From Candidatus Forterrea multitransposorum CG_2015-17_Forterrea_25_41 (GTDB lineage: Archaea; Iainarchaeota; Iainarchaeia; Iainarchaeales; CSSED10-239): a DNA stretch of 64,000 nt. The notes beneath the pieces were generated by a model that did no database searches, was not told the DNA's origin, and saw nothing but the letters and a program-made list of their open reading frames with translations. The DNA is taken from the NCBI GenBank assembly GCA_009392915.1, contig CP045477.1, forward strand, positions 192,001-256,000. The letters run 5' to 3'. Every line of letters starts with the position of its first letter. Position 1 is the first letter of the stretch. Made by a program: the position numbers and the translations under genes. Of this stretch, positions 44,301-63,900 are shown in pieces.

Positions 44301-47300
44301 CTTTTATTTCTTTTTATGATGTTAGAGATACTTTTATTTCTTCTTTAAAACCAAGTAATTCAAATGGAAGGAATGGAAAATATACTATTACAAATAATTT
44401 TAATACTTCAACTGTTAAAATGGTAGTTGAAAGATATGGTTATCTTCCTTATGAAACTGAAATTTATATTATTGATAATACTTTATTAAATGCAATTCCT
44501 TCAGAAATAATTTTTAATTTAGGTCTTGACCAAACAGCATCAACTTCAAATTTTAGTTTAGAAAACTTAGGTAATTATCAAGCAACAAATGTAAGGTTTG
44601 GAGAACCTATTTGGATTGAAGGTAGTGCTGGTATTTATCTTGAAGGAAGAGGTAATCCAATAATTAATAAAAACTCAACTCAAAATTATCAATTGTTACT
44701 TACAACAGAAAATGATGTTGAACTTAAAACAGCATATGCACATCTTCCAGTATATGCATCTGTAGGTCCTAGAGAAGTTACAAAAATATTAAATGTTAGA
44801 ATAAATAAAGGTTTAATGTTAAATGAATGTGTTGAAATTACTCCTTCTGAAGTTTCTTCTTTTGTTGGACTAAATGTTTCTTCAAATTATGCAGATCCTT
44901 TTAATACTCCTTTTGCAGATTATGATTATACTTCAAATACTTCAAATAATCCTATGCTTGCACCTTCTCAAAGTTATTCTAATTATGAAGAATATTTAAA
45001 TTCAAGTGGATATAACATTACTGATTCAACAGATAATGGTTATACTTACACAGATTCTAAAAATTATACTTATCATGCAACTTCTCCTGCTCTTAATTCT
45101 CAAATTACTGAAAACACAACTTATTTTACAATTAAAAATAATTGTTCTCAAGCTATAACTTTTAATCCTCAAGCAGTTTTAACTTCTTCATCATCAAATA
45201 ATAATTTAGAAGTTTCTCTTGCAAACATAACTGTTCTTCCAGGAGAAGAAAAAGTTTATGATGTTATTTTAAAAAATTCATCTGAACTTAAAAGAAAAAC
45301 AACATATACCTATAATGTTTTATGGCATAATAATTATTATTCAATAGCTCCTTCAGTTTTAAATGTTGATCTTTTAGATTTAAGTAGAGCTTTATGGGTT
45401 ATGCCACAACAAATAAATATTCCAATCTCTCAAGTACATCCTCAACAAGCTGCTGAAAATTATACTAGATTTTTTATTAAAAATATAGGTGCTGTTCCAA
45501 TAACTGATATACAAATAAGTCAGTATCCAAAAATGGTGTCTTCTAATATTAAAATAACTGAATATCCAAGACAAGTATCTGTTTTAGAACCAGGAAAAAC
45601 AATTCCTGTTGATTTAAAATTTTCAGTAAATATTAATAAATCTACATTAGATAATGCCTTTATACAAGTAACTGGTAAAGCTGTTGGTATTAGTGAACCA
45701 ATTACTTCAACAACACAATTAGTGTTTTCAATTTCTTCTCCAAATTGCTTAAAAGTAAGTAATAAAAATATTAATTTTGATTTAGAAGTTGGGGAAACAA
45801 GAGCAAGAAATATTACAATTACAAATCAATGTTCTGAACCTGTTACAATAGTTGGAATTGATAAAAAACAACAAGGATATTATCAAGCATATGGGGATAA
45901 TTCTTTTAGAATAACTCCTGCTTCTGGTAATCCAATAATTCCTGTTAACATGTCAAATTCTTATAGAATAGAGTTTACTGCAAATTCTTTAGGTGGTTCT
46001 CCAAAAACACCAATGATACTTCAAGGTAGATTAATGAATTCAGGTAATCCTGTAACTTCAGAAGAGGTTTTAGTTTCAATAACTATAGATGATATAATGG
46101 TTGGAGAAGAAGCTGAAAGAAATATTTCTATTTTATCTTCTCTTCCTTCTTGTGAAGATCCACAAAATATTAATTCATATAATAGACCATTAATTTCAAT
46201 TAAAGATTGTTCTGAAACTTCAGGATATTGTGATGGAGAATCTTCAGCTGAATTAATTTTAAAAAAAGTAAATGAACTTCAAAATGAAATTAAACAATTT
46301 TCTGCACAAACACAATCAAAAGTAATTGATACTGGTTGTACTCTTCAAGATGCATATAGTGGTTTTTGTAAAATATCTGAACTTGGTGGAGGAATTGATC
46401 CTGTTGAGTTTTCTTTCTTTATGCAAAATGATAATGTTACACCTGATTTAATTAAATCTATTTTAACAAAATCAAATTATTCTTTTAAAAATTATTTTGT
46501 TGAAACAAATATTTTTAATAAAGAAATTAAAACTATAAATCAATATTCTTCTTATGGGGTATATGCTGGTGGAAATAAAATATTTGTATCTCCTCACCTA
46601 TCAGGTTGTGGAAAATATACAGTAGAGATTGATGGTTATGTTGCTGCAAGTCCAGATTATATTTATCCTGAAAGAGCATATTATTATATTAATGTTGTAG
46701 AAAAAGATACTAACACTATTCATTGTGAGAAAAATATTGTAAATTATTTAAATTATCTTCCATGGGATCTTTCTTTTAATAAAAACCAAAGAGCAGGAAC
46801 TTGGCTTACTTTATTTACTGGTGATGAAAATTTATCAAAAGCTTTAATTAAAAGTGTGGGTAAGTTTAAGTCAGATGAAATTGATTTAAGATATGTTTAT
46901 AATAAAGATGTTTTATCTACAAGAAATAGTACTTTAAATGTTTCAACTGGAGAGATTTCTGAAAATAAAGAAGCTCTTGCAAAAATTTCTTTTAATGATA
47001 CTTCTTTAAGAAAAAGCTCTTCTCCAGAACAAATAGATATTACTTTAAATTCTCTTTATAATTCTCCTGAAGGTAAAACTTCTGAGTATGCTGTTAAAGA
47101 TTTTTCAAAAGTAATTTCTTCAATGATTTCAGATAATGATTATTCTGCAAAAGTTTGTATTTCTGAAGATAAAACATATATGCTTGTTTTAGATGTTATT
47201 TCAGCAGGAGATTTAACTTTTGTTGATAAAGAAGTAAGTCTTCCTTTAAAGGATGGAGCTTCATGTTCTTTATTAAAAGTTAAATCATCAGTTCCTGAAA

Positions 47301-51297: not shown

Positions 51298-54200
51298 ATG
51301 GGTCTTAGATCTTTTTACTTTAAACAAGAAGAAAAATATTTTAATTTTCTAGACAGGATGGAGAAAAAAGGAATTAATCTATACAAAATAATAGATCCTT
51401 TAGAAAAGAATGGTATACCTACTTTTTTAGTATTTAATATATTTATTCTACTTTTAATTTTATTTTTAGTTTATTTATTTGTTGGACAAACTCCATTAAC
51501 TGATGAAAACTACACTTTAACTTTTGTAAATTCTCAAGACCAGCCAATCTCAAATCAAGCAATTGAAATTCTTCTTAATAACAATAGAAAGATTTTAACA
51601 ACTAATGAATTTGGAATTTCAGAAATTACTGATGTTGAAATTAAATCTTATGATTTAGAAATAAGTAGTGAAAAGTATACTCTTGAAAATCCATTAACTT
51701 TAGATTTTAAAGAAAACACTTCTCATAAAATATTTTTAAAATCAAAAACTTCTGTTTTATCAAAAACTATATATTTTAAAACAAATAATGAATTATATAA
51801 TTCTCCATTAACAATTTCAAATATTTCTTGTTCAAATAATTCTCTTTATACAAAAAATAATCTTCAAACAAATGATGGTTCTTTAACTTTAGATGATATT
51901 CCTACAGATTGTGGATATTTAGAAGTTGCTATTGAATCTTCAACAATTAATGCTGTTGGTTCTTTAGAAGTTTCAGAAGACTCTCCTTCTGGAGATATTG
52001 ATTTAAGTTTTGAAGGTGTTGAAACTGGAAGTGCAAAAATAATTATTCTTGATAAAGATTTAAAAGTGCCTATTCAAAACATAAGTATTTCTATTCTTAA
52101 TAATCAAAGTCAAATTGTAACTTCTTCAATAACAAATGCAAATGGTATAGCATCTTTTGAAGAAATAAATGTTGGAACATATAATCTTTTAATCTATGAT
52201 GAAGAAGAAAGATACAAGCCAGTAACTGAAAATGAAAGTTTAGAACTTGTAGTATATGATTCTGTTTTAGAAGAAAAAGAAGTTCTTTTAGAAAAAGCAT
52301 TCATTGGTAAATTAAATTATAAAATTATTGATACTCAAAGTAAAGAAGCTATTGAAAATGTAGCTGTAACAATATACAAAGGAAATGATATTTTAAAAAC
52401 AATTAATTCAAATAAAGAAGGCGATGTTTCTTTTGGTGTTGAAGAAAATATTTCTTATAAAGTTTTATTTAATCATCCTAATTATATAATAAGAACTGAA
52501 AATAATCAAAGAATAAGTGAATCTATTAAACAAATTGCCTTAACTCCAATAACAAATGAAAATTTAAGAAGTTTAGTTATTACTGTTGTTGATGATTTTG
52601 CAAAACCTGTTGATTTTGCAACCATAAGATTATGGGATGATACTGAAGATATTATTCTTAGAACAATAACAGCTGATATTTATGGTAAAGCTGTTTTTAC
52701 AAATTTAGATTTAGGTAAAGAATATAGACTTGATGCAACTAAAGATCAATTTACTTCAAATCCTACAAATCCTTTTAGAATCTCAGAACAAGAAATAACT
52801 GAAGAAACTATAAAGATGAGTATAGGTGAAGGAACTTTTAATATTAATTTAGTTTCTGAGTATGGAGAGTTCTATCAAGGAAATGTATATGTTTATGATG
52901 CAACAAATGATACTTTAATGCAAGATAAAACCACAACAACAAACCAAGATGGTTTTACAATAATAAAGATTAGAGCTGATAAACAAATTTATTTTGTTAT
53001 TGATAATTTAGATTCTAAATTTATAACTCCAAAGTATTCAACAAATGCAAATGAAATAAATACTTTAAATTTTACAATTCCAGGAACTGTTGGGCAAACA
53101 TCTGGTATTGAATTTTTAGGTTTTTATAATGCTGAAGGAGAAAAAATAAATTCAGTGGCTGCAGGTATGCAAGTTACTGCTAAATATTTATTAAATGTTA
53201 CAAAAGAATATTCTAAAGCAGTTGCACATATAAGAACTGGAGAAGTTCCAAGTCCTTTATGTTCTTCAAACACATATAATGTTTTAGAAGATTTAATTTT
53301 TATAAAAGATGTACGTTATGCAAAATCTGATAAGATCGGTTCATTAACTTTTACTCCATGTAATGGAGAAGGTATTGATTTTTCAAATAAAACTTTAAGA
53401 AATGCAAAATGGTTTAATTTAACTTTAAATAATCCAATGCAAGGAAGTTATTTAATTGAAGCAGATGTTGTTGTTTTAGATACAGCTTTTGCAAATCAAG
53501 CTTTAAACTATAGAGCAGAGTTTTATCAAGGTTCAAGTATTATAAGATCACCTGTTGATTCTTCTTATAGTTCTTCAACAAGTAAACAAAATTTATATGC
53601 TCAAGCAAAACAAGTTCAATTATTTTTAGGAACTCAAAATCAATGTACTTCACTTATGTGTTATGCATTTATTATGACAAATACACAAAATAATTTATCT
53701 AGAAATATAATTGATAGTTATAAAGCTAAATTAAATAATGATTATAGACTTTCATTTAGTTTAAATGTTTTAGATGGAAAAATTGCACCAAACTCAATGC
53801 TTGTAATCTCTTCAGGTAGTTCTGTTGATTTAGATGGTTATTCTATTACTTCAGGAACTGGTTCTCTTTTAGTTGGAGAGGATTATGATGGAATTGATTT
53901 AGGTTCTTTAGTTTCAAATGATTTAATAACTGGAGAGCTTGCTTTTAAAGTAATAGATGATGTTTCTGATGTTTTAGACTTTTCAATAGTTTCTAATGGA
54001 GAAGTTGTATTCTCTAAAAAAATATATCTTGAAATTGATCCTGCAAAAGAAATGTTTGTAGAGTTTGTTCCAAGAAAAATTGTTCCTTTTGTTTCAAATG
54101 ATTTACTTGTTGTTGTAACTGATGATTCTAATAATTTTATTTCAAATGCAATTGTTGAACTTTCAATTAATGATAGAAGTTTAACTGTAGGTTCAACTAA

Positions 54201-57200
54201 TCAAGAAGGATTATTTGGTCATGTAATTCCAGCAACTGATCTTGGAGATGTTTTAAAGATTGTTGTAAAGAAAGATGATTATAAAACAGTTAAAACAGAA
54301 ATTGTAATTGATGATAAATTAATCACAACAATTCCTGAAAAAATTGATTTAACAATTGATTCTTCAAAATCAATAAGAGAAGTTTATAATTTTAGTTTAT
54401 ATAATGAATCTTATGTTCCTTTAACAATTGTTTCTGCATCAGCATTTACTGATAATGAATTTGTTGATCTTGATTTAGGTATTGAAGAAAATATCATAAA
54501 TGGTGTTTCTCAAAATGATATTTCTCTAACAGCAACATTAACAGATAAAGGTATTAATCTTTATAATCAACAAACAATTAATACAGAAGTTGCAATTAAA
54601 ATTAAAAGTGAAGAAATGAATAAAACTTGGGTTATTACAGTTCCATTAACTGTTAGAATAGTTTTAGGAAATTCTCTTGATTCTCTTGAATGTTTAAAAG
54701 TTCTACCTCTTGAAGGAACAATTAGAGCTAAATCTCAAGAAACAAAAACTTTAGATTTTACTTTAGAAAACACTTGTACTTCAAAGAATGTTTCTGTTGA
54801 TTTAGGAACTATTAATGCAATGGTTGATTGGGGTAATGAATCTGAAACTGGACTTTTATCAATTGTTGTTTCTGGTAAAGAATATATTTTAGAAAACTTA
54901 ACTGAAACTGAAATATTATCAACTCTTTTAAAGAAATCAAAAACAACTTTACAATTAAAGTTTAAAGCGCATAAAATAGTTTCAGATGTTAAAATACCAA
55001 TTATTTATTTTACTTCAAAGAAAGGAAATATTAATGGTGTTGATGAAGTTAAAACAAGACTTCCCTTAAAAACAATTATTAATGATTATTCAGAATGTAT
55101 TGAGATCCCAAGAGAGACAATTCCTGCTCTTGCATGTAATTGGTATTCTGGACTTAATAACTATGGTAATTATTATGGTGGAGTAAACCAAGGAGGAGCT
55201 TTCAATAATCCTTATTATGGTGGAAATAATTTTAATGCAACATATAATCCTAATAACCAATTTAATTCTAGAAATTACTATCAACAAGGTTCTGGTTATG
55301 TTACACAACAACAAGGTGTTTTTAATCCAAATTATAATTTAGTGGGACAAACAAATTATACAGGAAATCAAAATTCTGTGTTTAACCCTTATAATTTCCC
55401 TTCCTCACAATATCAAAATACTTTTGGAAATTATGATAGTTATAATTTTACATCAGGTTATCCTCAAGGTAACTATGGAAACATGGGTTTTACAAATAAC
55501 ATGAATTGTCCAACAAGACCATTTTATATTAAAAATAATTGTTCTGAAGCTGTTGATATTAAACTTGATTCAATATATGGTTTAACAATTGCAACAGATA
55601 AAGAATTTACAATAGAACCTGGAGATACAGAAGAGATTAGTGTTTTAGGTGGAGAGTCTATGGGTACTTTTAAAATACCTGTAAATGCAAAAGCATCTCT
55701 TGCATCTAATGAAAATTATTCAACAATTGGAGATGTTTTATTTTCTTTAACATTACCAATTAGTTTTATGTCTTCAAATTGTATACAAGTAACTCCTCAA
55801 AAATTAGATTTTTCAAATATTATTGATCCTAACTATCAACTTGTAAAAGTAATTAATACTTGCTTTGCACAAGGATACAGAATAGTTGAAGTTAATTATC
55901 TTGATTTAATTTCACTTGACTTTGATGGTGTATCTTTCTTAAATGTAGGAGATATGCAAGGAAGAATTCAACCAATTAAAGTTGATACTTTAACAAATAC
56001 AACTACAAATGAACCAATGGAAGTTTGGGAAATTGCATTAAGAAGAAATCCTGAAATTGAAAATACTAAGTCTGTAAAAGAGTATATGAATAAATATTCT
56101 GATTATTCTTTAGCTGCTGGTGTTATTTCTTCATTTAGAAAAATATTAATTGATGTTGAAGACGCAGTTAACTTAAAGTTTTCTTTACAAGTTGGACTTC
56201 AACCACCAACAGGACAAGCTTCACTTATCTATAATAATATAGGTATGGAACTTAAGGATAATTTCCAATGGTTAATTTTAGATAATCCTGATAATATAGG
56301 TCTTTTAAAAGATTTATTTGGTGATGAAGCTATTAGTGATGAAGAAATTTCATTTATTGATACTTCTGTAAAATTAACATATACCCTTGATCCTAATAAC
56401 AATGCAGTTATTATTAATGTTCCTGAAGGAGAACTTGCTGCAGATAAATTCACACAAATTGATCAAGACCCTACAAGTAAAAGATGTTTCTATGGATATG
56501 TTAAAGATTTCCCTATAACTGGTATTGTAGATACTTCATATATACAAAACTCTGGTAAATATTATTTAAATAATAAATATGATCCATTAGATGTAAGTCT
56601 TGAATTTATTACTAGAAATAAAAATATCTTTAAATTATGTTTTGAAAGACCAGTTGAATCATTTGATAATATTTTAGCTACAAATGATAATTACAATATC
56701 TTAGATTTATTTAAAACAAGTAAAGATTCTCTTACAAACCAAAACTTTGAGATTTGGAGAATTTTAGATACTACAAATAAAGGTAAATACCAAGGTAGTA
56801 CTTTAATTGGTGTAAAAGCTGATGTTTCAACAAAAGAAGTTGGCTCTAAAGAAGAGGGTGACTCTGGAAAAACTGATCCTTCTCAAACAACAGATGATTC
56901 TTTAGTTTGTCTTGCTCCTGACCTTTCAACAAATCTTGGACATACAGGTTCTAATGTTTATTCTCAATATGGATTTGATAAAATATTACTTGATTACTTA
57001 CCAGAAGATATTACAGATTCTTCTTGTGAAGATTATTTCTGTGATCAAGAACAATTCTATAATTTCTTAACAAAGAAAGCAGATAAATTAAAAGAAGTTA
57101 CTTCAAATAGTAATTATATAAATATTAATGGTATTTATTTTGAAAAAGAAAATAATACTATTAAAGAATCAAAAGTAAAAGTAGATCTTTGTGCAAACGG

Positions 57201-58269
57201 CGTTTGTGATGGCTTTGATGTTTCTGGTAAAGAAACTTTAAATGATTATATAAATCAAGCAAATAAAGTTTTAAATGCTGTTCCAGCAGACTTAAAGAAA
57301 ATAACAATCATTAAGACTAAAGGTTTAACTACTAATGGAAATAAAATTGTAACAATTGGTGATTATCAATATACAACTGTTGATTATTTCTTAGAAAATT
57401 ATGATTCTTTTGAGAACAAAGCAATAGTTTATGCAAACATGGATGTATACTTTGGATCTTCTCCTCAAGTATTCAGTTCTAACCTTAAGAAATTTTCTGG
57501 TAGTTCTGAAGATTTAAATAAAAAAATCTTAGCAAACTTTAATAATACTTTAACAAGTAACTATACAATTGAGTATGCTGAGGCTGTAAATATTTCAAAA
57601 CCAGGAACTTATACAACAGTTATTTCTCTTGAAAATATAGATTCTCAAAATAAAAGAAAAATAAATTTAACAATAGGTTCTAAAGTTTCTGAGATTAGTG
57701 AAGAATATAGTAAAAATATTTTATTTACATATCCAATTAATCCTGAATATACAATGAAAGAAAAGAGTGATAAATATAATGCTCCTTTCATTAAGAATAA
57801 AAATTATACTTTAATTGATTATCCTTCAGAAATTATACAAGATGGATATATCTTTAAGTTTGAGGATATGGCAAATTATGATTTTATTGATTCAAGACCA
57901 TTTTATTTCAATAAACCATATAGTTTTAAGATTATTGAAACTAATGAAAATAATACAGAGCTTGATTTAATAGAAAATAAAGCAAGTTTATTCTTACTTA
58001 AAGATAGAACAAATAAAAAGATTAGTTTGTATTCAAAACCACAAATTACAAGTCAAGATACAAAGAATAACACTGTCTTTTTAAAAACAACTACTAATAA
58101 TAATTATATGATATATAATTTACAAATGAATAATGTTTTACCAAAATTAACATATTCATCAATGAAAGATGTATTTAATGAAATTAAAAACGAGAATGTA
58201 TGTTTCAATATAACTGAAGGAACAACTCCTGAACTTATGTTGTGGCATAATCCTGAAAAATTTAAATGA
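51298..58269 (+). CDS. Giant surface protein C (2323 aa), paralog of A and D
   Basis: An uninterrupted 6972-nt ORF. N-terminus: MGLRSFYFKQEEKYFNFLDRMEKKGINLYKIIDPLEKNGIPTFLVFNIFILLLILFLVYLF. It has a beta-sandwich array (KDDYKTVKTEIVI and others), an N/Q/Y/G-rich low-complexity segment, and IKNNCSEAVDIKLD, ENTCTSKNVSVDLG and INTCFAQGYRIVEV module starts. Confidence 0.9.
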   Translation: MGLRSFYFKQEEKYFNFLDRMEKKGINLYKIIDPLEKNGIPTFLVFNIFILLLILFLVYLFVGQTPLTDENYTLTFVNSQDQPISNQAIEILLNNNRKILTTNEFGISEITDVEIKSYDLEISSEKYTLENPLTLDFKENTSHKIFLKSKTSVLSKTIYFKTNNELYNSPLTISNISCSNNSLYTKNNLQTNDGSLTLDDIPTDCGYLEVAIESSTINAVGSLEVSEDSPSGDIDLSFEGVETGSAKIIILDKDLKVPIQNISISILNNQSQIVTSSITNANGIASFEEINVGTYNLLIYDEEERYKPVTENESLELVVYDSVLEEKEVLLEKAFIGKLNYKIIDTQSKEAIENVAVTIYKGNDILKTINSNKEGDVSFGVEENISYKVLFNHPNYIIRTENNQRISESIKQIALTPITNENLRSLVITVVDDFAKPVDFATIRLWDDTEDIILRTITADIYGKAVFTNLDLGKEYRLDATKDQFTSNPTNPFRISEQEITEETIKMSIGEGTFNINLVSEYGEFYQGNVYVYDATNDTLMQDKTTTTNQDGFTIIKIRADKQIYFVIDNLDSKFITPKYSTNANEINTLNFTIPGTVGQTSGIEFLGFYNAEGEKINSVAAGMQVTAKYLLNVTKEYSKAVAHIRTGEVPSPLCSSNTYNVLEDLIFIKDVRYAKSDKIGSLTFTPCNGEGIDFSNKTLRNAKWFNLTLNNPMQGSYLIEADVVVLDTAFANQALNYRAEFYQGSSIIRSPVDSSYSSSTSKQNLYAQAKQVQLFLGTQNQCTSLMCYAFIMTNTQNNLSRNIIDSYKAKLNNDYRLSFSLNVLDGKIAPNSMLVISSGSSVDLDGYSITSGTGSLLVGEDYDGIDLGSLVSNDLITGELAFKVIDDVSDVLDFSIVSNGEVVFSKKIYLEIDPAKEMFVEFVPRKIVPFVSNDLLVVVTDDSNNFISNAIVELSINDRSLTVGSTNQEGLFGHVIPATDLGDVLKIVVKKDDYKTVKTEIVIDDKLITTIPEKIDLTIDSSKSIREVYNFSLYNESYVPLTIVSASAFTDNEFVDLDLGIEENIINGVSQNDISLTATLTDKGINLYNQQTINTEVAIKIKSEEMNKTWVITVPLTVRIVLGNSLDSLECLKVLPLEGTIRAKSQETKTLDFTLENTCTSKNVSVDLGTINAMVDWGNESETGLLSIVVSGKEYILENLTETEILSTLLKKSKTTLQLKFKAHKIVSDVKIPIIYFTSKKGNINGVDEVKTRLPLKTIINDYSECIEIPRETIPALACNWYSGLNNYGNYYGGVNQGGAFNNPYYGGNNFNATYNPNNQFNSRNYYQQGSGYVTQQQGVFNPNYNLVGQTNYTGNQNSVFNPYNFPSSQYQNTFGNYDSYNFTSGYPQGNYGNMGFTNNMNCPTRPFYIKNNCSEAVDIKLDSIYGLTIATDKEFTIEPGDTEEISVLGGESMGTFKIPVNAKASLASNENYSTIGDVLFSLTLPISFMSSNCIQVTPQKLDFSNIIDPNYQLVKVINTCFAQGYRIVEVNYLDLISLDFDGVSFLNVGDMQGRIQPIKVDTLTNTTTNEPMEVWEIALRRNPEIENTKSVKEYMNKYSDYSLAAGVISSFRKILIDVEDAVNLKFSLQVGLQPPTGQASLIYNNIGMELKDNFQWLILDNPDNIGLLKDLFGDEAISDEEISFIDTSVKLTYTLDPNNNAVIINVPEGELAADKFTQIDQDPTSKRCFYGYVKDFPITGIVDTSYIQNSGKYYLNNKYDPLDVSLEFITRNKNIFKLCFERPVESFDNILATNDNYNILDLFKTSKDSLTNQNFEIWRILDTTNKGKYQGSTLIGVKADVSTKEVGSKEEGDSGKTDPSQTTDDSLVCLAPDLSTNLGHTGSNVYSQYGFDKILLDYLPEDITDSSCEDYFCDQEQFYNFLTKKADKLKEVTSNSNYININGIYFEKENNTIKESKVKVDLCANGVCDGFDVSGKETLNDYINQANKVLNAVPADLKKITIIKTKGLTTNGNKIVTIGDYQYTTVDYFLENYDSFENKAIVYANMDVYFGSSPQVFSSNLKKFSGSSEDLNKKILANFNNTLTSNYTIEYAEAVNISKPGTYTTVISLENIDSQNKRKINLTIGSKVSEISEEYSKNILFTYPINPEYTMKEKSDKYNAPFIKNKNYTLIDYPSEIIQDGYIFKFEDMANYDFIDSRPFYFNKPYSFKIIETNENNTELDLIENKASLFLLKDRTNKKISLYSKPQITSQDTKNNTVFLKTTTNNNYMIYNLQMNNVLPKLTYSSMKDVFNEIKNENVCFNITEGTTPELMLWHNPEKFK

Positions 58270-58296: not shown

Positions 58297-61200
58297 ATGG
58301 GACTTAAAAAGTTATACTATAATTTAGAAGATAAATATTACAGTTTTGTTGAAAGAACAGGACTTTATAAGGTTACTGATAAAATAGATAAGGTTATGCC
58401 TTCTTTTATTTTATTTATTCTTTTAATTGTAATATTAATATCTGGACTTGTCTTTTTACTACTTCCTTCTTCTCAAGTAAAAGACGGTGTTGATATTCAG
58501 TTTGAAGTGATTGATGCTGAGTCTGGTGCTCTTCTAGAGGATGTAACTTTAATGCTTACAACAAGTAAAGATATTTCTTCTATAACAACTTCTTCTGAAG
58601 GACTTACAGATTATATTAAAATTCCTAAAAATACCTCTTATCAAATAGATATTGTTGAAGATTCTTATGAAAATTTCAATGATATTTTTTCAACAAAAGA
58701 GTCTTCTGAAACTATAACTATAGCTTTAGAACCTTCTGGTGTTGAACCATTAACTGTTTCATATTCTTTTGATGTTGTTGATTCTAAAACTACTTTAATT
58801 GTAAATTCTACTGGTGCAATTTCTTTTAAATGTATGAACGGATCTTTAGCACCTAATCCAGTTAGAGTTTTAAATGGTAATGTTTCAGTTGAGGCATCTC
58901 CTGAATGTAATCTTGCAATTGATTCAATTTCATTTAATGGTTATTTATCAAAAGATAATATTCCAATAAATGCAATGACTGGAACAATTTCTTTAGAACC
59001 AACAGAAATTAATTTCCAAGATGATACTTATAAAGTTGTAATAAATGTTAAAAATTCATCTAATGAAGCTTTATCAAATATTAAGGTAACTTTTACAAAT
59101 GATTATGGTATAATTGATTCTAAAACAACTTCAAGTAATGGAAATGTAACTTTTGAAGATTTAGATTCTGGAGAATATATTGTAAATTTTTCTGATCAAA
59201 GAGCAACTCCTATATACAGTACTCTTTCAAGAACATATTATATTTCATCTGATATTACAAAATCAGAAACTTTATCTTCTGATGTTTCTGGATATATTTT
59301 TGTAAGAATAATTGGTGAAAATTCAGGTGTTTTAGAAGGAGCTGAAGTAAATTTAAAAACTTCAGAAAATAATACTATTGAAACTAAATTATCTGATGTT
59401 GATGGTGAAGTAATTTTTACAGTTTCTGAAATTAAAGATTATAATGTAGTTGTTGATGCTGAAGGTTATTTAATAACTAGAAAACTTGTTGAAGCAAAAG
59501 AAGTAATGCCAACAAACCCTATTGTTATTCCTTTACCTTTAATAACACCTGCAACTTTAGCTTCTTTAAAGGTACAAGTTACAACTTGGGAAGGAAAGCC
59601 TTTTAAGTTTGCAAAAGTTGTTTTGTATGATGCAGAAACTGGTTTTTTAACAGACTATAAACCAGTTTTAACAAACTATGATGGAAATGCTACAATAAAT
59701 ATTACTTCTGGAAAATATATTGCAAAAGCTATTAAAGGAAGTGTTACTGGTGAGTCATCAGAGTTTGAGTTTAATGTTAAATATCCTGAACTTTCTGGTA
59801 CTGTAACTATTCCAATGGGAATTAGTGAAGGTGTATTGAATGTTTCAGTTGTTGATAATGATGGTAATCCTGTTCCATATGCCATAATAGATTTATATGA
59901 TAGATATAGTTACTATAATTTCACACCAGCAGTTCCTTTAAAAAAGACAACTACAGATTCACAAGGAAATATTGAAATGGTTGTGGATGCTGATATTGAA
60001 TATTATGTTGTTGCAACTGATTTAGATGATGTTTATGGAAAAACACAATCTAGATTTGTTTATGTTGGTGCAGATTCTCAAGAGTCTCTAGAAGTTACTC
60101 TTTATCCAAGAAATAGTTCTACAACAAAACCAAGAATGGTATTTAATGGAATATATAAAGATGACTTAAAAGTTGAAGATAACTTAAAGGCTGGAGAAGA
60201 TTACAAAATCAGATATAATCTTTTAGTTCCTCAAAATAGAACTGGAGATGATGTTTTTGAAGAAATTGGTTTAATGTTAAGAACTGGTTCAACTTCAATG
60301 ATTGAAAATGATTCTTTATTTATTAAATATCTAGATGTTCCATATTTAGATAGTATACAAAAATATACACAATTTAATCTTAATGCACCTCATGAAAATG
60401 AAGGTTATTATGATGAAGATAGTTTAACTGAAGGAAACTTTAAATGGGCAAAAGCAACATTAAAAGAAGGTCCTATTAATTATAATGGTTCTTTTGGTTT
60501 CTATAATGCTTATGAAATTGAAGCAATAATTTCTGTTAAAGACACAGCTGTCTTTGGAGAAGAACTTAAAATATTTAGTTTAGGTTATGGTCTTAATGAA
60601 GATGATGAATATGAAACATATAATTCATATTTAGGACCTAATGAAGAAATTGAATATTATGATGTTTATGATCAAATAACATTTGGTGTTGGAAATGAAC
60701 TTTTCTGTTCTGATGAGTTTTGTTTCTCTTCAACAATTGTTGATGTTTCAGAAGACTTAAGATATGATGTTACAAATAATTTTGCAGCTATGCCAAATAA
60801 AGATTATAAGTATAGTTTTACATTAATTAATAATTCTCTTGAAACTAAATATTTATCTTCTAGATTTATTTTAGAAAATATTGATGAAGGTTTAGATTTT
60901 AAAAATATAAAAATCTATAAACCAGATGGAGAAGTATACACCCAAACAAATACTAATGAAAATGAATTTGATATACCAATAACTTCTTTAGTTTCAAAAC
61001 AAAAAGTAACTGGAGAAATTATTTTTATGCCTAAACTTAAAGGTACAAGAGAGTTATCTATTAAATTTATTTCTGATCAAAAAATAAAATTCATTAATCA
61101 ATTATTCATAGATGTTCTTTCAGATAAAACATTTGAAGTAGAGATTGAACCTTCAATAATTCCTTCTGCAAAGAGTTTCTCACTTGTGATTAATGCTGTT

Positions 61201-63900
61201 GATTCTAAAACAAAAATACCTGTTGAAAATAGAACAATAACAATTAAAGATAAATTTAAAGATACTATTAAAGGACCAATTTCAGTATCTGATTCAGTTG
61301 ATGAAATTGAAATAGGTAATATTCCTGCTCAAGGACCTGGAGATACAATCTATGTTTATATAACAGCTCCTGAGTATGAAACTGTTGTTGAAGAATTAAA
61401 AGCAACTGATAAATTATATAATATTATTCCAAGAAATTTAGCATATTCATTAAATATATTTGATGAAAAACAAAAAACTGAAAACTTTACAATTAATAAT
61501 TTATCTCCAATTGATTTAACTATTGATGAAATGGTTGTAAAAGGAAATGGTCTTGAAGTTGTTGATCTTCACAGAATAAATAATACTTTACTTAATAGTG
61601 TTGGTGTTATTATAAAAGGATTTGATTCAGTTTCAGATCTGCCAGATAACACAGACGCTTCAAAAGAGATTCCATTAACTATTAGTTTAAATCCAAGAGC
61701 TGAAACAATTAGAGAAGTTGTAGATTTATCTTCAACACTTCATATTGTTCTTTCAAATGGAGAAAATCAATGGAAGAGTGAGATTCCAATTAAAATAAAT
61801 ATTGGCTTTGATGGTATGATTGATAATTCTAATTGTTTAACTTTATCTCAAGATCAATGGAATGCTGTTGCTTTAAATAAAGCTGTTGATACAACATTTA
61901 TGGTTTCAAATAAATGTTCTGTAAATGGAACAAATATGCCTCTTTCAAATGGTCTTGAAGCAAGAGTATTATTTGAATCTAATCCTCAAGGTAAATTTAT
62001 TATAAGTCTTGATAATAGATCAATTGAACTTACTCATGGTAACTATAGAAGATTACTTGATACTTTTGATAGAGATAGATCACTTCCAGTAATTTTAAAA
62101 TATGAACCTGCTGGAAGAATGAAAGGAACTGTTAAAGGTACAATTGAGTTTAGATCTGTAAATAACACTGGAAGTGGAGAACAAGAATTAGTTTCATCAA
62201 TTGCATTTGAAATTGATGTTACAAATTTAAAAGATTGTGTTGTGTTTTCAAAGAGTTCTTTAAATGTTGGACAAGTTGATGACGAATTCACAATTGAAAA
62301 TGTTGCTTGTCCTGCAGACATGACTTACAGACTTTCATGTGACAATTGTCAAGGTTTAGTTGTTGAACCAAGAAATAATATTGATGTTCCTGCAAGTGGA
62401 AGTAGTGAAAATATTGTTGTAAGAAACATGGGAGCTACACCTGGTGCTTATGTTTTAAATGTATTTTCAAGTATGAAAGAATTTAGAGGTTCTGAAGAAC
62501 TTATAAAAAGAATAAAAGTATATGTAAGACCAACAGATTATTGTGTTGATCTTGAAAGATATGAGTTTGATCTTTATAGATCTGAATATTCTGAAAGTAC
62601 TGGTCTTGAACTTAATGCAACTTCATATGATACAACAAATTTAATTAATCTTTGTTATGGTCAAGAAGTTGAAGGTACTTTTAGTGTTAAAGAAGATGCT
62701 AAATGGAAGATGGCTTTAACTTCATTTTTAAGAGAAGGTTTGTATACTGGTGGTATTTCTGCTATCTTGCAAGGAAAGTTATTTGCATCAGCTGAAGATA
62801 AGGCAAATAAATTACTTGAAAGTGATGCTATAAAGAATAGCACTGATGAAAATGTAAAATCAGCTGCTGCTGCATTAGCTGCTGCTGTTGCTACTGGTAA
62901 TAAGAAAGATATTAAAGAGAAGACAACTGCTCTTGAGAATGCTGTGAATGATTCTGTTAATCCAACTTCTTCAGAAGCTACACCTGGGGAAACTTCTACT
63001 GGAAATCAAACTTCTTTGATTGATAAATCTAACCAATTAGTTACTGATGTTGAAAAATATTTAGAAGATTACAAGGTTTCTGGAAAAAATATTTATCAAG
63101 AAGTTGGTGACACAAATATAAAAAAATTAATCAATGATTTAAAAGATGCAATAAAAACTAATAAAATTGAAAAAATAGAACCTGCTTATAATGAGCTAAA
63201 ATATGTTTTTGAAGAATTTAAAAATACAAATTCTCCTGTTACTACTCCATCTGCTGGAAGTACTCCACCCGCTCAAACTACTTCCCCCGCTCAAACTTCT
63301 GATACTGATAGTTTAACTGTAAATGATGATGTTGATAATACTTGGAAAAATAGTGTTAATTTAGATATATATAGAGAGTTTGTTTTAGATAATCCTAATA
63401 AACTTGATTTTGAATCTAAATCCTATAAAGCAGAAGATTATTCTAATTGGGATACTTTCAGAGAAAAATACGATAAAAGTGTTATTACACTTAATAAAAA
63501 AATAGAAGATGAATTATTAGTGTCTGCAACAAGTCAAAATGATTTTTCTGAAAAAATAAGAACTGCAAAAGATGAATGGAAAAAAAATGTTAGAATTTTA
63601 ATTGAAGATTTAAAAGCAAAGGAGGAGACATTAACTCCTAATTTAGATGTTCAACAACAAAGACTTCAAATTGCAAGTCAAGCACAAACAGGTGCTAGTT
63701 GTAGTAAAGACGAATTAATCCCTGGAACACAAGAAAATTTATTTAATATTATTGAACCTAATGATAATGGATTTGTATATGTTTGTACAGGAAATGGTCA
63801 TTATAGAGCTTGTGATTTAAATACAAATAAATGGACTCCAATAGCAACTAATTACCCAATTTATGATCATGCAGTAGATACATGTATTGAAATAAATTAA
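58297..63900 (+). CDS. Giant surface protein D (1867 aa), paralog of A and C
   Basis: An uninterrupted 5604-nt ORF. N-terminus: MGLKKLYYNLEDKYYSFVERTGLYKVTDKIDKVMPSFILFILLIVILISGLVFLL. It has a beta-sandwich array (AEGYLITRKLVE, APEYETVVEEL) and VSNKCSVNGTNMPL and ENVACPADMTYRLSCDNC modules. The C-terminal region is Ala/Ser/Thr/Pro-rich and coiled-coil-like. Confidence 0.9.
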   Translation: MGLKKLYYNLEDKYYSFVERTGLYKVTDKIDKVMPSFILFILLIVILISGLVFLLLPSSQVKDGVDIQFEVIDAESGALLEDVTLMLTTSKDISSITTSSEGLTDYIKIPKNTSYQIDIVEDSYENFNDIFSTKESSETITIALEPSGVEPLTVSYSFDVVDSKTTLIVNSTGAISFKCMNGSLAPNPVRVLNGNVSVEASPECNLAIDSISFNGYLSKDNIPINAMTGTISLEPTEINFQDDTYKVVINVKNSSNEALSNIKVTFTNDYGIIDSKTTSSNGNVTFEDLDSGEYIVNFSDQRATPIYSTLSRTYYISSDITKSETLSSDVSGYIFVRIIGENSGVLEGAEVNLKTSENNTIETKLSDVDGEVIFTVSEIKDYNVVVDAEGYLITRKLVEAKEVMPTNPIVIPLPLITPATLASLKVQVTTWEGKPFKFAKVVLYDAETGFLTDYKPVLTNYDGNATINITSGKYIAKAIKGSVTGESSEFEFNVKYPELSGTVTIPMGISEGVLNVSVVDNDGNPVPYAIIDLYDRYSYYNFTPAVPLKKTTTDSQGNIEMVVDADIEYYVVATDLDDVYGKTQSRFVYVGADSQESLEVTLYPRNSSTTKPRMVFNGIYKDDLKVEDNLKAGEDYKIRYNLLVPQNRTGDDVFEEIGLMLRTGSTSMIENDSLFIKYLDVPYLDSIQKYTQFNLNAPHENEGYYDEDSLTEGNFKWAKATLKEGPINYNGSFGFYNAYEIEAIISVKDTAVFGEELKIFSLGYGLNEDDEYETYNSYLGPNEEIEYYDVYDQITFGVGNELFCSDEFCFSSTIVDVSEDLRYDVTNNFAAMPNKDYKYSFTLINNSLETKYLSSRFILENIDEGLDFKNIKIYKPDGEVYTQTNTNENEFDIPITSLVSKQKVTGEIIFMPKLKGTRELSIKFISDQKIKFINQLFIDVLSDKTFEVEIEPSIIPSAKSFSLVINAVDSKTKIPVENRTITIKDKFKDTIKGPISVSDSVDEIEIGNIPAQGPGDTIYVYITAPEYETVVEELKATDKLYNIIPRNLAYSLNIFDEKQKTENFTINNLSPIDLTIDEMVVKGNGLEVVDLHRINNTLLNSVGVIIKGFDSVSDLPDNTDASKEIPLTISLNPRAETIREVVDLSSTLHIVLSNGENQWKSEIPIKINIGFDGMIDNSNCLTLSQDQWNAVALNKAVDTTFMVSNKCSVNGTNMPLSNGLEARVLFESNPQGKFIISLDNRSIELTHGNYRRLLDTFDRDRSLPVILKYEPAGRMKGTVKGTIEFRSVNNTGSGEQELVSSIAFEIDVTNLKDCVVFSKSSLNVGQVDDEFTIENVACPADMTYRLSCDNCQGLVVEPRNNIDVPASGSSENIVVRNMGATPGAYVLNVFSSMKEFRGSEELIKRIKVYVRPTDYCVDLERYEFDLYRSEYSESTGLELNATSYDTTNLINLCYGQEVEGTFSVKEDAKWKMALTSFLREGLYTGGISAILQGKLFASAEDKANKLLESDAIKNSTDENVKSAAAALAAAVATGNKKDIKEKTTALENAVNDSVNPTSSEATPGETSTGNQTSLIDKSNQLVTDVEKYLEDYKVSGKNIYQEVGDTNIKKLINDLKDAIKTNKIEKIEPAYNELKYVFEEFKNTNSPVTTPSAGSTPPAQTTSPAQTSDTDSLTVNDDVDNTWKNSVNLDIYREFVLDNPNKLDFESKSYKAEDYSNWDTFREKYDKSVITLNKKIEDELLVSATSQNDFSEKIRTAKDEWKKNVRILIEDLKAKEETLTPNLDVQQQRLQIASQAQTGASCSKDELIPGTQENLFNIIEPNDNGFVYVCTGNGHYRACDLNTNKWTPIATNYPIYDHAVDTCIEIN

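Follow-up and report, generated by a model that had tools for sequence, protein, structure and literature searches.

Prion-like aromatic-rich domains have been studied almost wholly as drivers of intracellular condensates in eukaryotes, and an even distribution of aromatic residues in such domains is reported to favour liquid-like assemblies and prevent aggregation (PMC8638251). Archaeal candidates come from composition screens only: in a survey with PLAAC, 69 % of 1,262 archaeal proteomes had candidate prion domains (cPrDs), more in AT-rich genomes, with enrichment in the cell-wall, adhesion and chitin-binding categories, and the one adhesin-like cPrD that was tested was negative in both assays (Zajkowski et al., 10.1101/2020.07.20.212902). 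Among giant surface proteins of bacteria and archaea, SiiE, Bap and the putative Ig-rich S-layer proteins of DPANN archaea such as Nanobdella MJ1_0160 (10.1101/2023.10.27.564410) are very long stalks of tandem beta-sandwich domains, anchored in the membrane or wall, with many N-glycosylation sequons. A further point of comparison is the ASH/PapD-like fold of hydin, CEP192 SPD-2 and the chaperone-usher pilins. To our knowledge, neither an ASH/PapD-like domain with a large disordered insert in its A'-B loop nor a counterpart of a mid-stalk aromatic low-complexity loop in the giant Ig-repeat adhesins has been described.

The locus considered here lies in a 64-kb window (the whole stretch of 64,000 nucleotides that was analysed) and belongs to a predicted giant surface protein, protein C, with the following features.

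51298..58269, + strand: gene C, encoding a giant surface protein of 2,323 aa with a predicted type-II membrane anchor (ORF, Pfam, hydropathy)
51424..51489, + strand: sole N-terminal TM helix of protein C (hydropathy, flanking charges)
54670..55089, + strand: ASH/PapD-like domain before the host domain (about aa 1125-1264), its A-B loop only short (AF2 pLDDT 85-96)
55090..55755, + strand: host ASH/PapD-like beta-sandwich domain, about aa 1265-1486 (AF2, Foldseek, cysteine positions)
55135..55137, + strand: Cys1280, bracketing the loop on its N-terminal side (junction ALAC-NWYSG), present in 14/14 orthologues
55138..55506, + strand: low-complexity loop, N/G/Y/Q/F-rich and uncharged, aa 1281-1403 of protein C (composition, AF2)
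55507..55509, + strand: Cys1404, bracketing the loop on its C-terminal side (junction NNMN-CPTRPFY), invariant in orthologues and alignments

The ORF matches 'hypothetical protein GW835_02520 [archaeon]' from end to end with 100 % identity, and because the other ORFs beneath the loop on both strands are only fragments of 41-74 aa, the long frame is the gene; Rfam and tRNA scans returned 4 tRNAs only, none near the loop locus. Protein C runs from a cytoplasmic N-terminal motif through the TM helix (~aa 43-64) into CarboxypepD_reg/prealbumin-like and ASH-like repeats. Seven K/R residues lie on the N-terminal side of the helix and none on the C-terminal side, which by the positive-inside rule would place the N-terminus inside and the remainder, including the loop, outside. 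Taken with 22 cysteines whose positions look paired, the helix and its flanking charges indicate that the loop is very probably outside the cell, so that the extracellular location proposed in a sequence-only reading of this DNA is upheld as a prediction. With 35 N-x-S/T sequons, protein C resembles the SiiE, Bap and MJ1_0160-type giants in general build but differs from giant Ig-repeat adhesins in its N-terminal TM anchor, which follows a conserved cytoplasmic motif, and in its multi-paralogue cluster; no sequence homology to those giants was detected in Pfam and PDB sequence searches. Pfam matches were confined to CarboxypepD_reg, SdrD_B and SpaA near aa 245-308, with none covering aa 1125-1520 (loop and host domain) at E <= 0.1, and the PDB sequence search with protein C gave no match.

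The interval 55138-55506 (+) translates to exactly the 123-aa string that the sequence-only reading had described as a ~120-aa N/Q/Y/G-rich segment nearly devoid of charged and aliphatic residues, and that description stands. Its composition is N 25.2 %, G 14.6 %, Y 14.6 % and Q 9.8 %, against a window background (32 ORFs of at least 150 aa) of N 8.0 %, G 5.5 %, Y 5.0 % and Q 2.6 %; N+Q together make up 35 % and Pro 5 %, the 28 aromatic residues (about 23 %) lie 4.3 aa apart on average, and the loop lacks E, K, I, H and C and has a single D and a single R. Given the window's amino-acid frequencies, the probability of two or fewer charged residues in 123 is 6e-12, and that of seven or fewer I/L/V residues is 4e-8. 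The N+Q+Y+G fraction of 0.72 per 60-aa segment (mean 0.21, SD 0.07) is the highest of 16,770 such segments and the Shannon entropy of 3.27 bits is the lowest among 1,487 segments of 123 aa, so that no other segment in the 32 ORFs of this size class (at least 150 aa) departs as far in composition as the loop does.

The loop also stands out by measures of prion-likeness. It has 31 Q/N residues in the 80 aa from 1287 to 1366, compared with 20 in the window's next-best ORF, and so exceeds the Q/N-rich criterion of at least 30 Q+N per 80-residue window that Michelitsch & Weissman reportedly set in 2000. A re-implemented PAPA-type score, with log-odds after Toombs et al. 2010 and numbers that are approximate, peaked at 0.167 in the loop and averaged 0.129 there, above the threshold of 0.05 that is applied together with FoldIndex < 0 (loop FoldIndex -0.135), and the loop holds 110 of the window's 178 positions that pass on both counts. 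Its composition correlates with that of yeast Sup35N at r = 0.75, compared with 0.23 for the window proteome. By these simple criteria, computed with approximate parameters, the loop is prion-like in composition, as had been proposed; that it is a true prion is improbable. The accompanying remark that such a segment is unusual for archaea was overstated, given the 69 % of surveyed archaeal proteomes with cPrDs; the loop shares a Q/N-rich segment and an AT-rich archaeal genome with those candidates, a likeness of composition, and the survey (10.1101/2020.07.20.212902) describes neither this family nor its Cys-bracketed intradomain layout nor its conservation of an aromatic pattern.

The same scores (31 Q/N per 80 aa, PAPA-type values up to 0.167, a negative FoldIndex and the Sup35N correlation), together with the report that archaeal candidate prion domains form amyloid (10.1101/2020.07.20.212902), are what a true amyloid or prion domain would predict, whose cross-beta fibrils would fix neighbouring molecules in a coat of functional amyloid or in a state that templates itself. 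Several properties argue against this improbable alternative: the loop is 15 % Gly and 5 % Pro, it has no curli-type imperfect repeat units, ends pinned together as described below would be expected to hinder an in-register parallel stack, and the sole cell-wall-related archaeal candidate assayed by Zajkowski et al. proved negative in both tests. Further evidence against amyloid comes from the wider family and is given with it below.

The segment had been taken for a linker between modules, but instead it interrupts a single ASH/PapD-like domain, entering after strand A' (IPAL, aa 1275-1278) and leading into strand B (PFYIKNNC, aa 1406-1413), with Cys1280 and Cys1404 at its base and the IKNNCSEAVDI motif following it with CPTRPFY in between. 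AF2 places strands directly before (E151-154) and directly after (E282-289) the loop. Foldseek searches of the PDB with the host and preceding domains matched hydin-type central-pair proteins, CEP192 SPD-2/ASH (7ptb, 9fh8), 6fvi (ASH/PapD-like) and the CfaB/FimA pilins, with a probability of 1.0, E values from 1e-8 to 1e-5 and structural-alignment identities of 5-13 %. Since there are Foldseek matches but no Pfam match, ASH/PapD membership holds at the fold level only; the two C domains have the fold of hydin, CEP192 SPD-2 and the pilins in common but differ in the lack of a sequence-level match and in a characteristic cysteine pair of their own, with one member where strand A starts and the other in the N-x-C motif that closes strand B. 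The preceding domain bears the same C-x-x-[VIL]-x-P ... N-x-C signature. Cys1280 and Cys1404 are invariant in both alignments used for structure prediction (A1, 13 sequences; A2, 25 sequences) and are nested within the repeat-typical pair Cys1267/Cys1415, and from these positions a Cys1280-Cys1404 disulfide probably closes the base of the loop. Among the 95 more distant relatives introduced below, only 47 have a Cys at most 6 residues from both predicted loop ends, which counts against the disulfide, although the end positions are extrapolations from profile boundaries.

With alignment A1, AF2 assigned the loop a pLDDT of 21-34, compared with mostly above 80-90 for the scaffold, and the more diverse alignment A2 (29-43 for the loop, 81-95 for the scaffold) did not raise the loop to the level of its surroundings. 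The loop is therefore predicted to be intrinsically disordered, in agreement with its FoldIndex and with the flexibility that had been attributed to it, and its pLDDT of 21-43 across both runs is that expected of a sticker-and-spacer PLCD.

Two paralogues encoded in the window can be compared with protein C at this site.

44879..45073, + strand: aa 1173-1237 of paralogue A, a weaker counterpart of the loop, part of an 81-aa insert that precedes YFTIKNNCSQAITF (YFTIKNNC)
58297..63900, + strand: paralogue D, collinear with C over C aa 1-1275

By inspection, paralogue D has ~7 residues at the site of the 123-aa loop of C and, on this comparison of sequences, serves as an internal control showing the uninserted domain. 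The counterpart in A, which had been noted previously, is real but different in kind, being S/N/T/Y-rich and acidic (9 D/E, 1 K/R) and without bracketing cysteines. BLASTP between A and C gave near-zero similarity except at the N-terminal motif and around the insert, so the equivalence of place depends on a local signature, C-x-E-I-x-P ... F-x-I-K-N-N-C, together with a tblastn match at E = 0.01, obtained without composition correction. Of the A orthologues compared, those of L001 and L002 have the insert and L003 lacks it.

Among orthologues of C the loop is kept in all 14 full-length sequences, which are 29-69 % identical over the aligned two-domain region. Identities of loop versus flank were 0.71 v 0.68, 0.63 v 0.63, 0.57 v 0.66, 0.54 v 0.58, 0.35 v 0.42 and 0.25 v 0.30, compared with a loop identity of 0.09-0.13 expected by composition alone, and on these alignments the loop is about as conserved in sequence as its folded flanks. 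The earlier proposal that the position is conserved and the composition is not thus describes paralogue A correctly but does not extend to the orthologues of C, as the first four of these pairs already demonstrate. At shorter range, a single-protein scan matched only the genome of Ca. 'ainarchaeum' sp. STF1_257, with 96-97 % identity; comparison of the loop with a 96 %-identical relative revealed no indels and replacements that were mostly Y/F and S/T swaps, with changed codons at 20/123 in the loop and 126/1,607 in the rest, a rate ~2x faster for the loop that counts against the sticker reading developed below. At protein identities of 63 % and lower, synonymous sites are saturated.

A genome of ~25 % GC, the weak tracking of loop Asn with AT-type amino-acid usage (rho 0.30) and the gain or loss of the paralogue A insert between lineages would all suit a neutral, functionless low-complexity expansion arising from base composition or replication slippage. 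The sequence-only reading had named absence or variability in close relatives as a sign of such an expansion, but the insert is at the same site in 14/14 orthologues and in ~95 representative relatives, its identity far exceeds the compositional expectation, its bracketing cysteines are invariant, and the 29-69 % identity among orthologues argues against a single recent clade. Slippage is further opposed by the lack of indels at 96 % identity and of any DNA tandem repeat between 54800 and 55900 at a TRF score of at least 30; no second copy of the loop DNA was found within the 64-kb window, where the best other match was at most 39 nt. Base composition is a poor account of a loop with zero Lys and Ile, even though no codons are richer in AT than AAA and ATT, and with a GC of 0.282, slightly above the 0.257 of gene C. 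A neutral origin is consequently barely plausible.

Conservation equal to that of the flanks is nevertheless unusual for a purely 'fuzzy' disordered region and counts against the reading of the loop as a chain of stickers that is developed below; it could reflect a specific structure or partner that is invisible to AF2 with alignments of 13-25 sequences. Under this alternative the loop would be structured in vivo, either alone or on a ligand such as a glycan or a protein of the same cluster, and would act as a recognition module that AlphaFold2 misses. Besides the flank-like identity across orthologues, it could explain the motifs, read from the sequences, that recur over long distances (C-[NP]-[WY]-x-[ST]-G at the loop start, [ND]-P-Y and Y-P-N), the [FY]-N-P motif that occurs four times, loosely spaced, in the window's loop and the one loop Pro that is invariant in A1 and A2, and Tyr/Asn-rich surfaces are typical of carbohydrate binding. 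A structured loop is harder to reconcile with the low pLDDT in two runs beside a confidently predicted scaffold, with an I/L/V content of 6 % and no Ile, which leave scant material for a hydrophobic core, with a length of 47 to 175 aa across the family, or with the lack of a Pfam family match in the region and of a PDB sequence match, and it is considered a genuine but minor possibility.

To place the loop in a wider family, a profile search covering 1.84 billion representative proteins was used, with matches counted at E <= 1e-3. It returned 176 matches, of which 95 bear a 47-175-aa insert at the loop site; the few members with a named source belong to Diapherotrites/Iainarchaeota and Micrarchaeota, and the named relatives have no annotation beyond 'carboxypeptidase regulatory-like domain-containing protein'. 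In C-type proteins the loop has a fixed position at about residue 1,270-1,330, approximately mid-protein. Across the 95 relatives the aromatic fraction was 0.20 +/- 0.04 in the insert and 0.084 in the rest of the protein, the charged fraction 0.05 and 0.23, and the I/L/V fraction 0.06 and 0.23. Insert N (CV 0.46) and G (CV 0.40) varied and were inversely related (rho -0.41), with N ranging from 0.02 to 0.25 and Q+N falling as low as 0.06-0.08. Insert N was correlated with AT-type amino-acid usage elsewhere in the protein (rho 0.30, p 0.003), compared with rho 0.01 for the aromatics. The Asn richness of the loop in the window is the spacer choice of a 25 %-GC genome, with glycine used by relatives.

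The spacing of the aromatics was more regular than chance in both the window and the family. The variance of aromatic gaps in the window loop was 4.96, compared with 13.06 +/- 4.48 in shuffles, ~0.1 % of which reach 4.96; across the 95 relatives the mean z was -0.99, with 94 % below 0, i.e. more even than shuffled, a statistic that takes the representatives as independent although they are related. Judged from these sequences, the conserved trait is the evenly spaced aromatics in an uncharged polar/Gly context, rather than N/Q richness. Such spacing has been linked to assemblies that are liquid-like rather than solid (PMC8638251) and, with Q/N richness unconserved among the relatives, it speaks against the amyloid-like self-association that the sequence-only reading had suggested.

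The reading favoured here, to which about an even chance is given, is that the loop is a conserved, disordered, uncharged and aromatic-rich 'sticker-and-spacer' element serving as a multivalent cohesive or adhesive patch; this function is the most likely one suggested by composition and patterning. The loop would be inserted at A'-B in one Ig-fold domain, approximately half-way along an N-terminally anchored surface giant, and the Cys1280-Cys1404 disulfide, if formed, would pin its ends together so that it projects sideways from the stalk. The ~28 evenly spaced Tyr/Phe/Trp residues would act as stickers and the Asn/Gln/Gly/Ser/Thr/Pro residues as spacers separating them, together allowing many weak pi, hydrogen-bond and hydrophobic contacts, by which the loop could work as such a patch. 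Possible partners would be the same loop on adjacent molecules, the co-encoded giants, or a glycan or protein surface, for example that of a partner cell.

This sticker-and-spacer loop has much in common with the PLCDs of FUS, hnRNPA1 and Sup35-N, namely predicted disorder, few charged or aliphatic residues, polar/Gly spacers, evenly placed aromatics and a length of ~120 aa, and in its aromatic spacing and spacer composition it is FUS/hnRNPA1-like. It differs from them in being predicted extracellular instead of cytoplasmic or nuclear, in forming a closed loop within an Ig-like domain instead of a free terminal tail, and in its denser aromatics (~1 per 4.3 residues), flank-level conservation and DPANN host.

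The DPANN setting also raises the alternative of a membrane-active element that enters the membrane of a partner cell during cell-cell contacts. Cultivated DPANN members attach to host cells (10.1101/2023.10.27.564410). The uncharged composition, the ~23 % aromatic and 15 % Gly content and the Cys-pinned base would be compatible with a fusion-loop-like role. Viral and fusexin fusion loops show a likeness to these features, but known fusion loops are far shorter than 123 aa. The loop in protein C is moreover strongly polar (35 % N+Q), without a hydrophobic stretch, and sits mid-stalk (aa 1281-1403 of 2,323), away from the distal tip, making membrane insertion very unlikely.

An extension of the sticker-and-spacer reading, which is speculative and improbable, is that the loops of neighbouring C proteins in Iainarchaeota/Diapherotrites and Micrarchaeota stick together as a condensate- or hydrogel-like belt outside and around the cell, either as an FG-nucleoporin-like selective mesh or cohesive layer that replaces or supplements a crystalline S-layer, or as a glue to a partner. 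If true, such a belt would constitute a conserved, functional 'phase-separation grammar' outside an archaeal cell. Were the loop mere floppy decoration, it would still be an example of a Tyr/Gly-type loop that an AT-rich genome has given a 'prion-like' look. Four signs point to purifying selection, namely the same site in ~95 relatives, conservation at the level of the flanks, invariant cysteines and even aromatics, and the setting is unusual: a closed loop within an Ig-like domain, predicted to be extracellular, in a DPANN lineage. The family forms a natural series in which Asn- or Gly-rich spacers vary and stickers are constant, and could be used to probe sticker-and-spacer rules under extracellular, oxidising conditions as well as providing a handle on the surface biology of Iainarchaeota and Micrarchaeota.

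Two further classes were considered and rejected. The many AAY codons raised the variable region of a diversity-generating retroelement, but there is no template copy in the 64 kb, the loop is 63-71 % identical in orthologues and the substitutions relative to the 96 %-identical relative are not confined to adenines. A CsgA-like repeat amyloid of the curli type would require repeats, and just four loose [FY]-N-P motifs and no TRF repeat scoring at least 30 were present. N-glycosylation is no distinguishing feature of the loop, which has 3 sequons compared with ~3.7 expected from composition (own estimate) and 0-6 in orthologues. Gene C itself belongs to a conserved cluster of several giant paralogues, and within every gene cluster examined it is protein C alone that bears an uncharged low-complexity stretch.

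The translation of window positions 55138-55506 (+) matches exactly the 123-residue segment quoted from the sequence alone, and the ORF that contains it as aa 1281-1403 (51298..58269; protein C) is identical (100 %, whole length) to 'hypothetical protein GW835_02520 [archaeon]'. Compared with the 32 window ORFs of at least 150 aa each, the segment is rich in Asn, Gly, Tyr and Gln and contains no Glu, Lys, Ile, His or Cys, and only a single Asp and a single Arg (probability of two or fewer charged residues, 6e-12). Across 16,770 windows of 60 aa, the segment had the highest combined share of Asn, Gln, Tyr and Gly (0.72; mean 0.21, SD 0.07), and among 1,487 windows of 123 aa its entropy of 3.27 bits was the minimum. 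No tandem DNA repeat was found in the segment region, the segment DNA occurs only once in the window, and no ORF competes with the gene C frame at the segment.

Amino-acid composition of the segment and of the window ORFs
N: segment 25.2 %; window ORFs 8.0 %
G: segment 14.6 %; window ORFs 5.5 %
Y: segment 14.6 %; window ORFs 5.0 %
Q: segment 9.8 %; window ORFs 2.6 %
E, K, I, H, C: segment 0 each; window ORFs 6.4, 8.1, 9.4, 0.8, 1.0 %

Apart from the segment, the window has a single strongly low-complexity stretch, the Gly_rich_2 region of the first of two large proteins:
155-3463 (-), LamG/concanavalin-like protein with a C-terminal Gly_rich_2 domain (PF21722), 30 % Gly
4006-6414 (-), LamG/concanavalin-like protein

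The segment had been read as a linker between modules, but strand positions, cysteine brackets and the short corresponding site in paralogue D place it instead as an insertion within one domain, in the A'-B loop. AlphaFold2 modelling of aa 1125-1520 from a 13-sequence alignment predicted two beta-sandwich domains (pLDDT mostly 85-96), with one strand stopping 3 residues upstream of the loop and the next starting 2 residues downstream; the loop itself (model residues 158-278) had a pLDDT of 21-34, and a second run with a more diverse 25-sequence alignment gave 29-43 for the loop and 81-95 for the scaffold. Foldseek searches of the PDB matched the scaffold to ASH/PapD-like domains (E down to 1e-8), including hydin-type ciliary central-pair proteins, the CEP192 SPD-2 domain and chaperone-usher pilins, and the modelled host domain is assigned to this class at the fold level only; none of the Pfam models detected the loop or host-domain region. 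A regular expression and two alignments agree on the cysteine bracket around the loop (ALAC, loop, CPTRPFYIKNNC), directly outside which lies a second invariant pair, Cys1267/Cys1415; this outer pair matches the C-x-x-[VIL]-x-P ... N-x-C signature also seen in the adjacent repeats (Cys1132/1160 and Cys1495/1522). By elimination and invariance, a Cys1280-Cys1404 disulfide most probably closes the loop base. Paralogue D, collinear with C aa 1-1275 (23 % identity, E 4e-33), has around 'NLKDCVVFSKSSLNVGQVDDEFTIENVAC' only about 7 residues (NVGQVDD) opposite the 123 of C, and thus serves as a natural 'uninserted' control.

The weaker counterpart reported in protein A is real (window 44879-45073, within an 81-aa insert preceding YFTIKNNC); it is rich in S, N, T and Y, is acidic (9 D/E, 1 K/R) and lacks flanking cysteines. 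Among the A orthologues of related loci L001-L003, two carry this insert in the analogous A-B loop and the one from L003 lacks it altogether, so that it is evolutionarily labile, unlike the loop of C.

An uncharged loop of 83-140 aa occurs at the same site in 14/14 full-length orthologues of C, which are 29-69 % identical to the window protein across the two aligned domains. Loop identities, set beside those of the flanks below, compare with 0.09-0.13 expected from composition alone.

Loop and flank identity of C orthologues to window protein C
P0002: loop 0.71; flank 0.68
P0003: loop 0.63; flank 0.63
P0004: loop 0.57; flank 0.66
P0005: loop 0.54; flank 0.58
P0006: loop 0.35; flank 0.42
P0014: loop 0.25; flank 0.30

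Against a 96 % relative, the loop showed no indels and 11 non-synonymous plus 9 synonymous changes in 123 codons, compared with 54 non-synonymous and 72 synonymous in the remaining 1,607 codons, indicating that it evolves about twice as fast at short range; the replacements were mostly Y/F, S/T and similar swaps. Lys and Ile, which have the most AT-rich codons, are missing from the loop, and its GC content is a little higher than that of the gene as a whole (0.282 against 0.257). Together with the conservation across orthologues, far beyond compositional expectation, these observations contradict a neutral AT-driven expansion, the outcome that the sequence-only reading had set against its own proposal, and this explanation ranks last among the alternatives, with almost no weight left to it.

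A search of 1.84 billion representative proteins with a profile built from the two domains found 176 relatives (E <= 1e-3), mostly 2,300-2,700 aa long and matching at around residues 1,120-1,540. With the insertion site placed by separate upstream and downstream HMMs, an insert of 47-175 aa (mean 95 aa) was found in 95 representatives, each one cluster at 50 % identity, and about ten of the most distant matches, which may be paralogues like D, had 0-14 aa there.

Residue fractions in family inserts and in the rest of the protein (representatives counted as independent, which they are not)
Aromatic: insert 0.20 +/- 0.04 (CV 0.19); rest 0.084
Charged: insert 0.05; rest 0.23
I/L/V: insert 0.06; rest 0.23
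Asn: insert 0.11 +/- 0.05 (CV 0.46); rest 0.062
Gly: insert 0.16 +/- 0.06 (CV 0.40); rest 0.072

The Asn and Gly fractions differ widely between inserts, one rising as the other falls (rho -0.41); insert Asn tracks AT-type amino-acid usage in the remaining protein (rho 0.30, p 0.003), and aromatic content does not (rho 0.01). With the representatives again counted as independent, aromatic spacing is more even than in shuffles in 94 % of inserts (mean z -0.99), and in the window loop the variance of aromatic gaps is 4.96 against 13.1 +/- 4.5 in shuffles, about 0.1 % of which get there. Constant aromatics and low charge with variable Asn and Gly thus identify the conserved trait, as read from sequence, as an uncharged aromatic sticker-and-spacer loop in which the spacers are here mostly asparagine.

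More distant members (P0027, P0033, P0037, P0038, P0044, P0047, P0054 and P0069) have recognisable in-loop motifs in common, C-P-[YF]-N-T-G-[FY]-G-N-Y-G ... S-R-Y ... D-P-Y ... Y-G-Y-G-T-G-x-P-P-Y-[IL]-G, so this 'low-complexity' loop may in part be an array of conserved linear motifs and not composition alone. These recurring motifs, along with sequence conservation at the level of the flanks, would fit a specific structured or ligand-induced recognition module, the foremost alternative; however, both AlphaFold2 runs gave low confidence in the loop, which also lacks core-forming residues, and this explanation is considered unlikely.

Prion propensity was scored with simple re-implementations that give approximate values: the loop has 31 Q/N in 80 aa (threshold 30), a PAPA-type score of up to 0.167 (threshold 0.05) and a FoldIndex of -0.135, and supplies 110 of the 178 window positions at which both the PAPA and the FoldIndex cut-offs are passed. 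In composition it correlates with Sup35N (r = 0.75), and by these measures it would probably be flagged by PLAAC-type tools, in line with the prion-like character first suggested. Such a flag is less unusual for archaea than had been supposed, since candidate prion domains occur in 69 % of 1,262 archaeal proteomes (0.10 % of proteins), more commonly in AT-rich genomes and with enrichment in cell-wall, chitin-binding and adhesion categories; the only adhesin-like candidate assayed in that study was negative (Zajkowski et al., 10.1101/2020.07.20.212902). Even spacing of aromatics in prion-like domains reportedly promotes liquid-like assembly and prevents aggregation (PMC8638251). A true amyloid or prion is the second alternative and is judged improbable. 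The C loop would work like aromatic prion-like low-complexity domains.

The window (GC about 25 %) also encodes NurA, an XPD-like helicase and a PEP synthase/PPDK; gene C has a copy at 96-97 % identity in 'Candidatus ainarchaeum sp. STF1_257', and named relatives belong to Ca. Diapherotrites, Ca. Iainarchaeum and Ca. Micrarchaeota, which places the source among the DPANN archaea, in the Iainarchaeota/Diapherotrites lineage. Gene C lies in a run of genes at 41363-63900 (+) for giant proteins with an N-terminal anchor:
A, 2,671 aa
B, 49488-51167 (+), 559 aa
C, 51298-58269 (+), 2,323 aa
D, 58297-63900 (+), 1,867 aa

The order A-B-C-D is the same in L001 and L003/L004 (A 2.6-2.9 k aa, B about 560-605 aa, D 1.7-1.9 k aa), and two more genes follow there, of about 965 and about 2,450 aa; the L002 contig stops inside D and the window just past it. 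Orthologues from L001, L002 and L003/L004 share 63 %, 37 % and 34 % identity. Protein C has one hydrophobic helix (about aa 43-64) with 7 K/R on its N-terminal side and not one over the next 25 residues, 22 cysteines whose positions look paired, and 35 N-x-S/T sequons; under the positive-inside rule, we infer a type-II membrane protein with its bulk, including the loop, extracellular. That the loop is a membrane-active element, the third alternative, is very improbable.

In the preferred reading, the loop would be disordered and disulfide-stapled, projecting sideways at mid-stalk, where about 28 evenly spaced aromatic stickers would make multivalent weak contacts and act as a cohesive or adhesive patch, with neighbouring C molecules (homotypic), co-encoded partners or a foreign surface as possible partners. 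The anatomy, the conservation, the predicted disorder and the aromatic patterning are results of the analysis; the location, the disulfide and the function are inferred. Assembly of such loops into an extracellular condensate- or hydrogel-like belt is doubtful. To our knowledge, the architecture is new, in that an Ig-like domain of a giant protein, membrane-anchored and predicted to be extracellular, contains a closed disordered loop; so are the deep conservation of the loop across this DPANN family, whose only annotation is 'carboxypeptidase regulatory-like domain-containing protein', and the Asn-for-Gly spacer swap with constant aromatic patterning.

The giant proteins and all C orthologues have in common a cytoplasmic N-terminal motif immediately preceding the TM helix, MGLKxFYYKLEDKYFxxLDxLExKGINLYKIIDPLEKxGIPTF (window 51298-51423 in C, 58297-58380 in D, 41420-41530 in A), which had no match among known families and could be a targeting or assembly signal. 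The N-terminus of protein B, MLRNKKGFNLFTALISLMLLSITLVFIF, resembles a class-III (type IV pilin-like) signal peptide and precedes a domain of roughly 530 aa with 10 cysteines; B had no Pfam match, and an ORF of about its size lies at the same place in every related locus. The C-terminal part of protein A (window about 47600-49378 (+)) contains a cysteine-rich hydrophobic stretch that includes FFSCSGACGLCYGLSGLIMPTQFVGAIVDCLGFSCLLPSL, then S/A/T-rich and coiled-coil-like sequence and another small hydrophobic patch, an arrangement suggestive of membrane contact by both termini of A. Two further genes were noted in the window, the second belonging to a group common among DPANN genomes:
20402-22924 (-), 840-aa ORF with an intein (Intein_splicing plus LAGLIDADG homing endonuclease), its host protein having a weak Zot-like match (E 3.3e-4)
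6740-8188 (+), RuBisCO large-subunit homologue (PF00016, PF02788)
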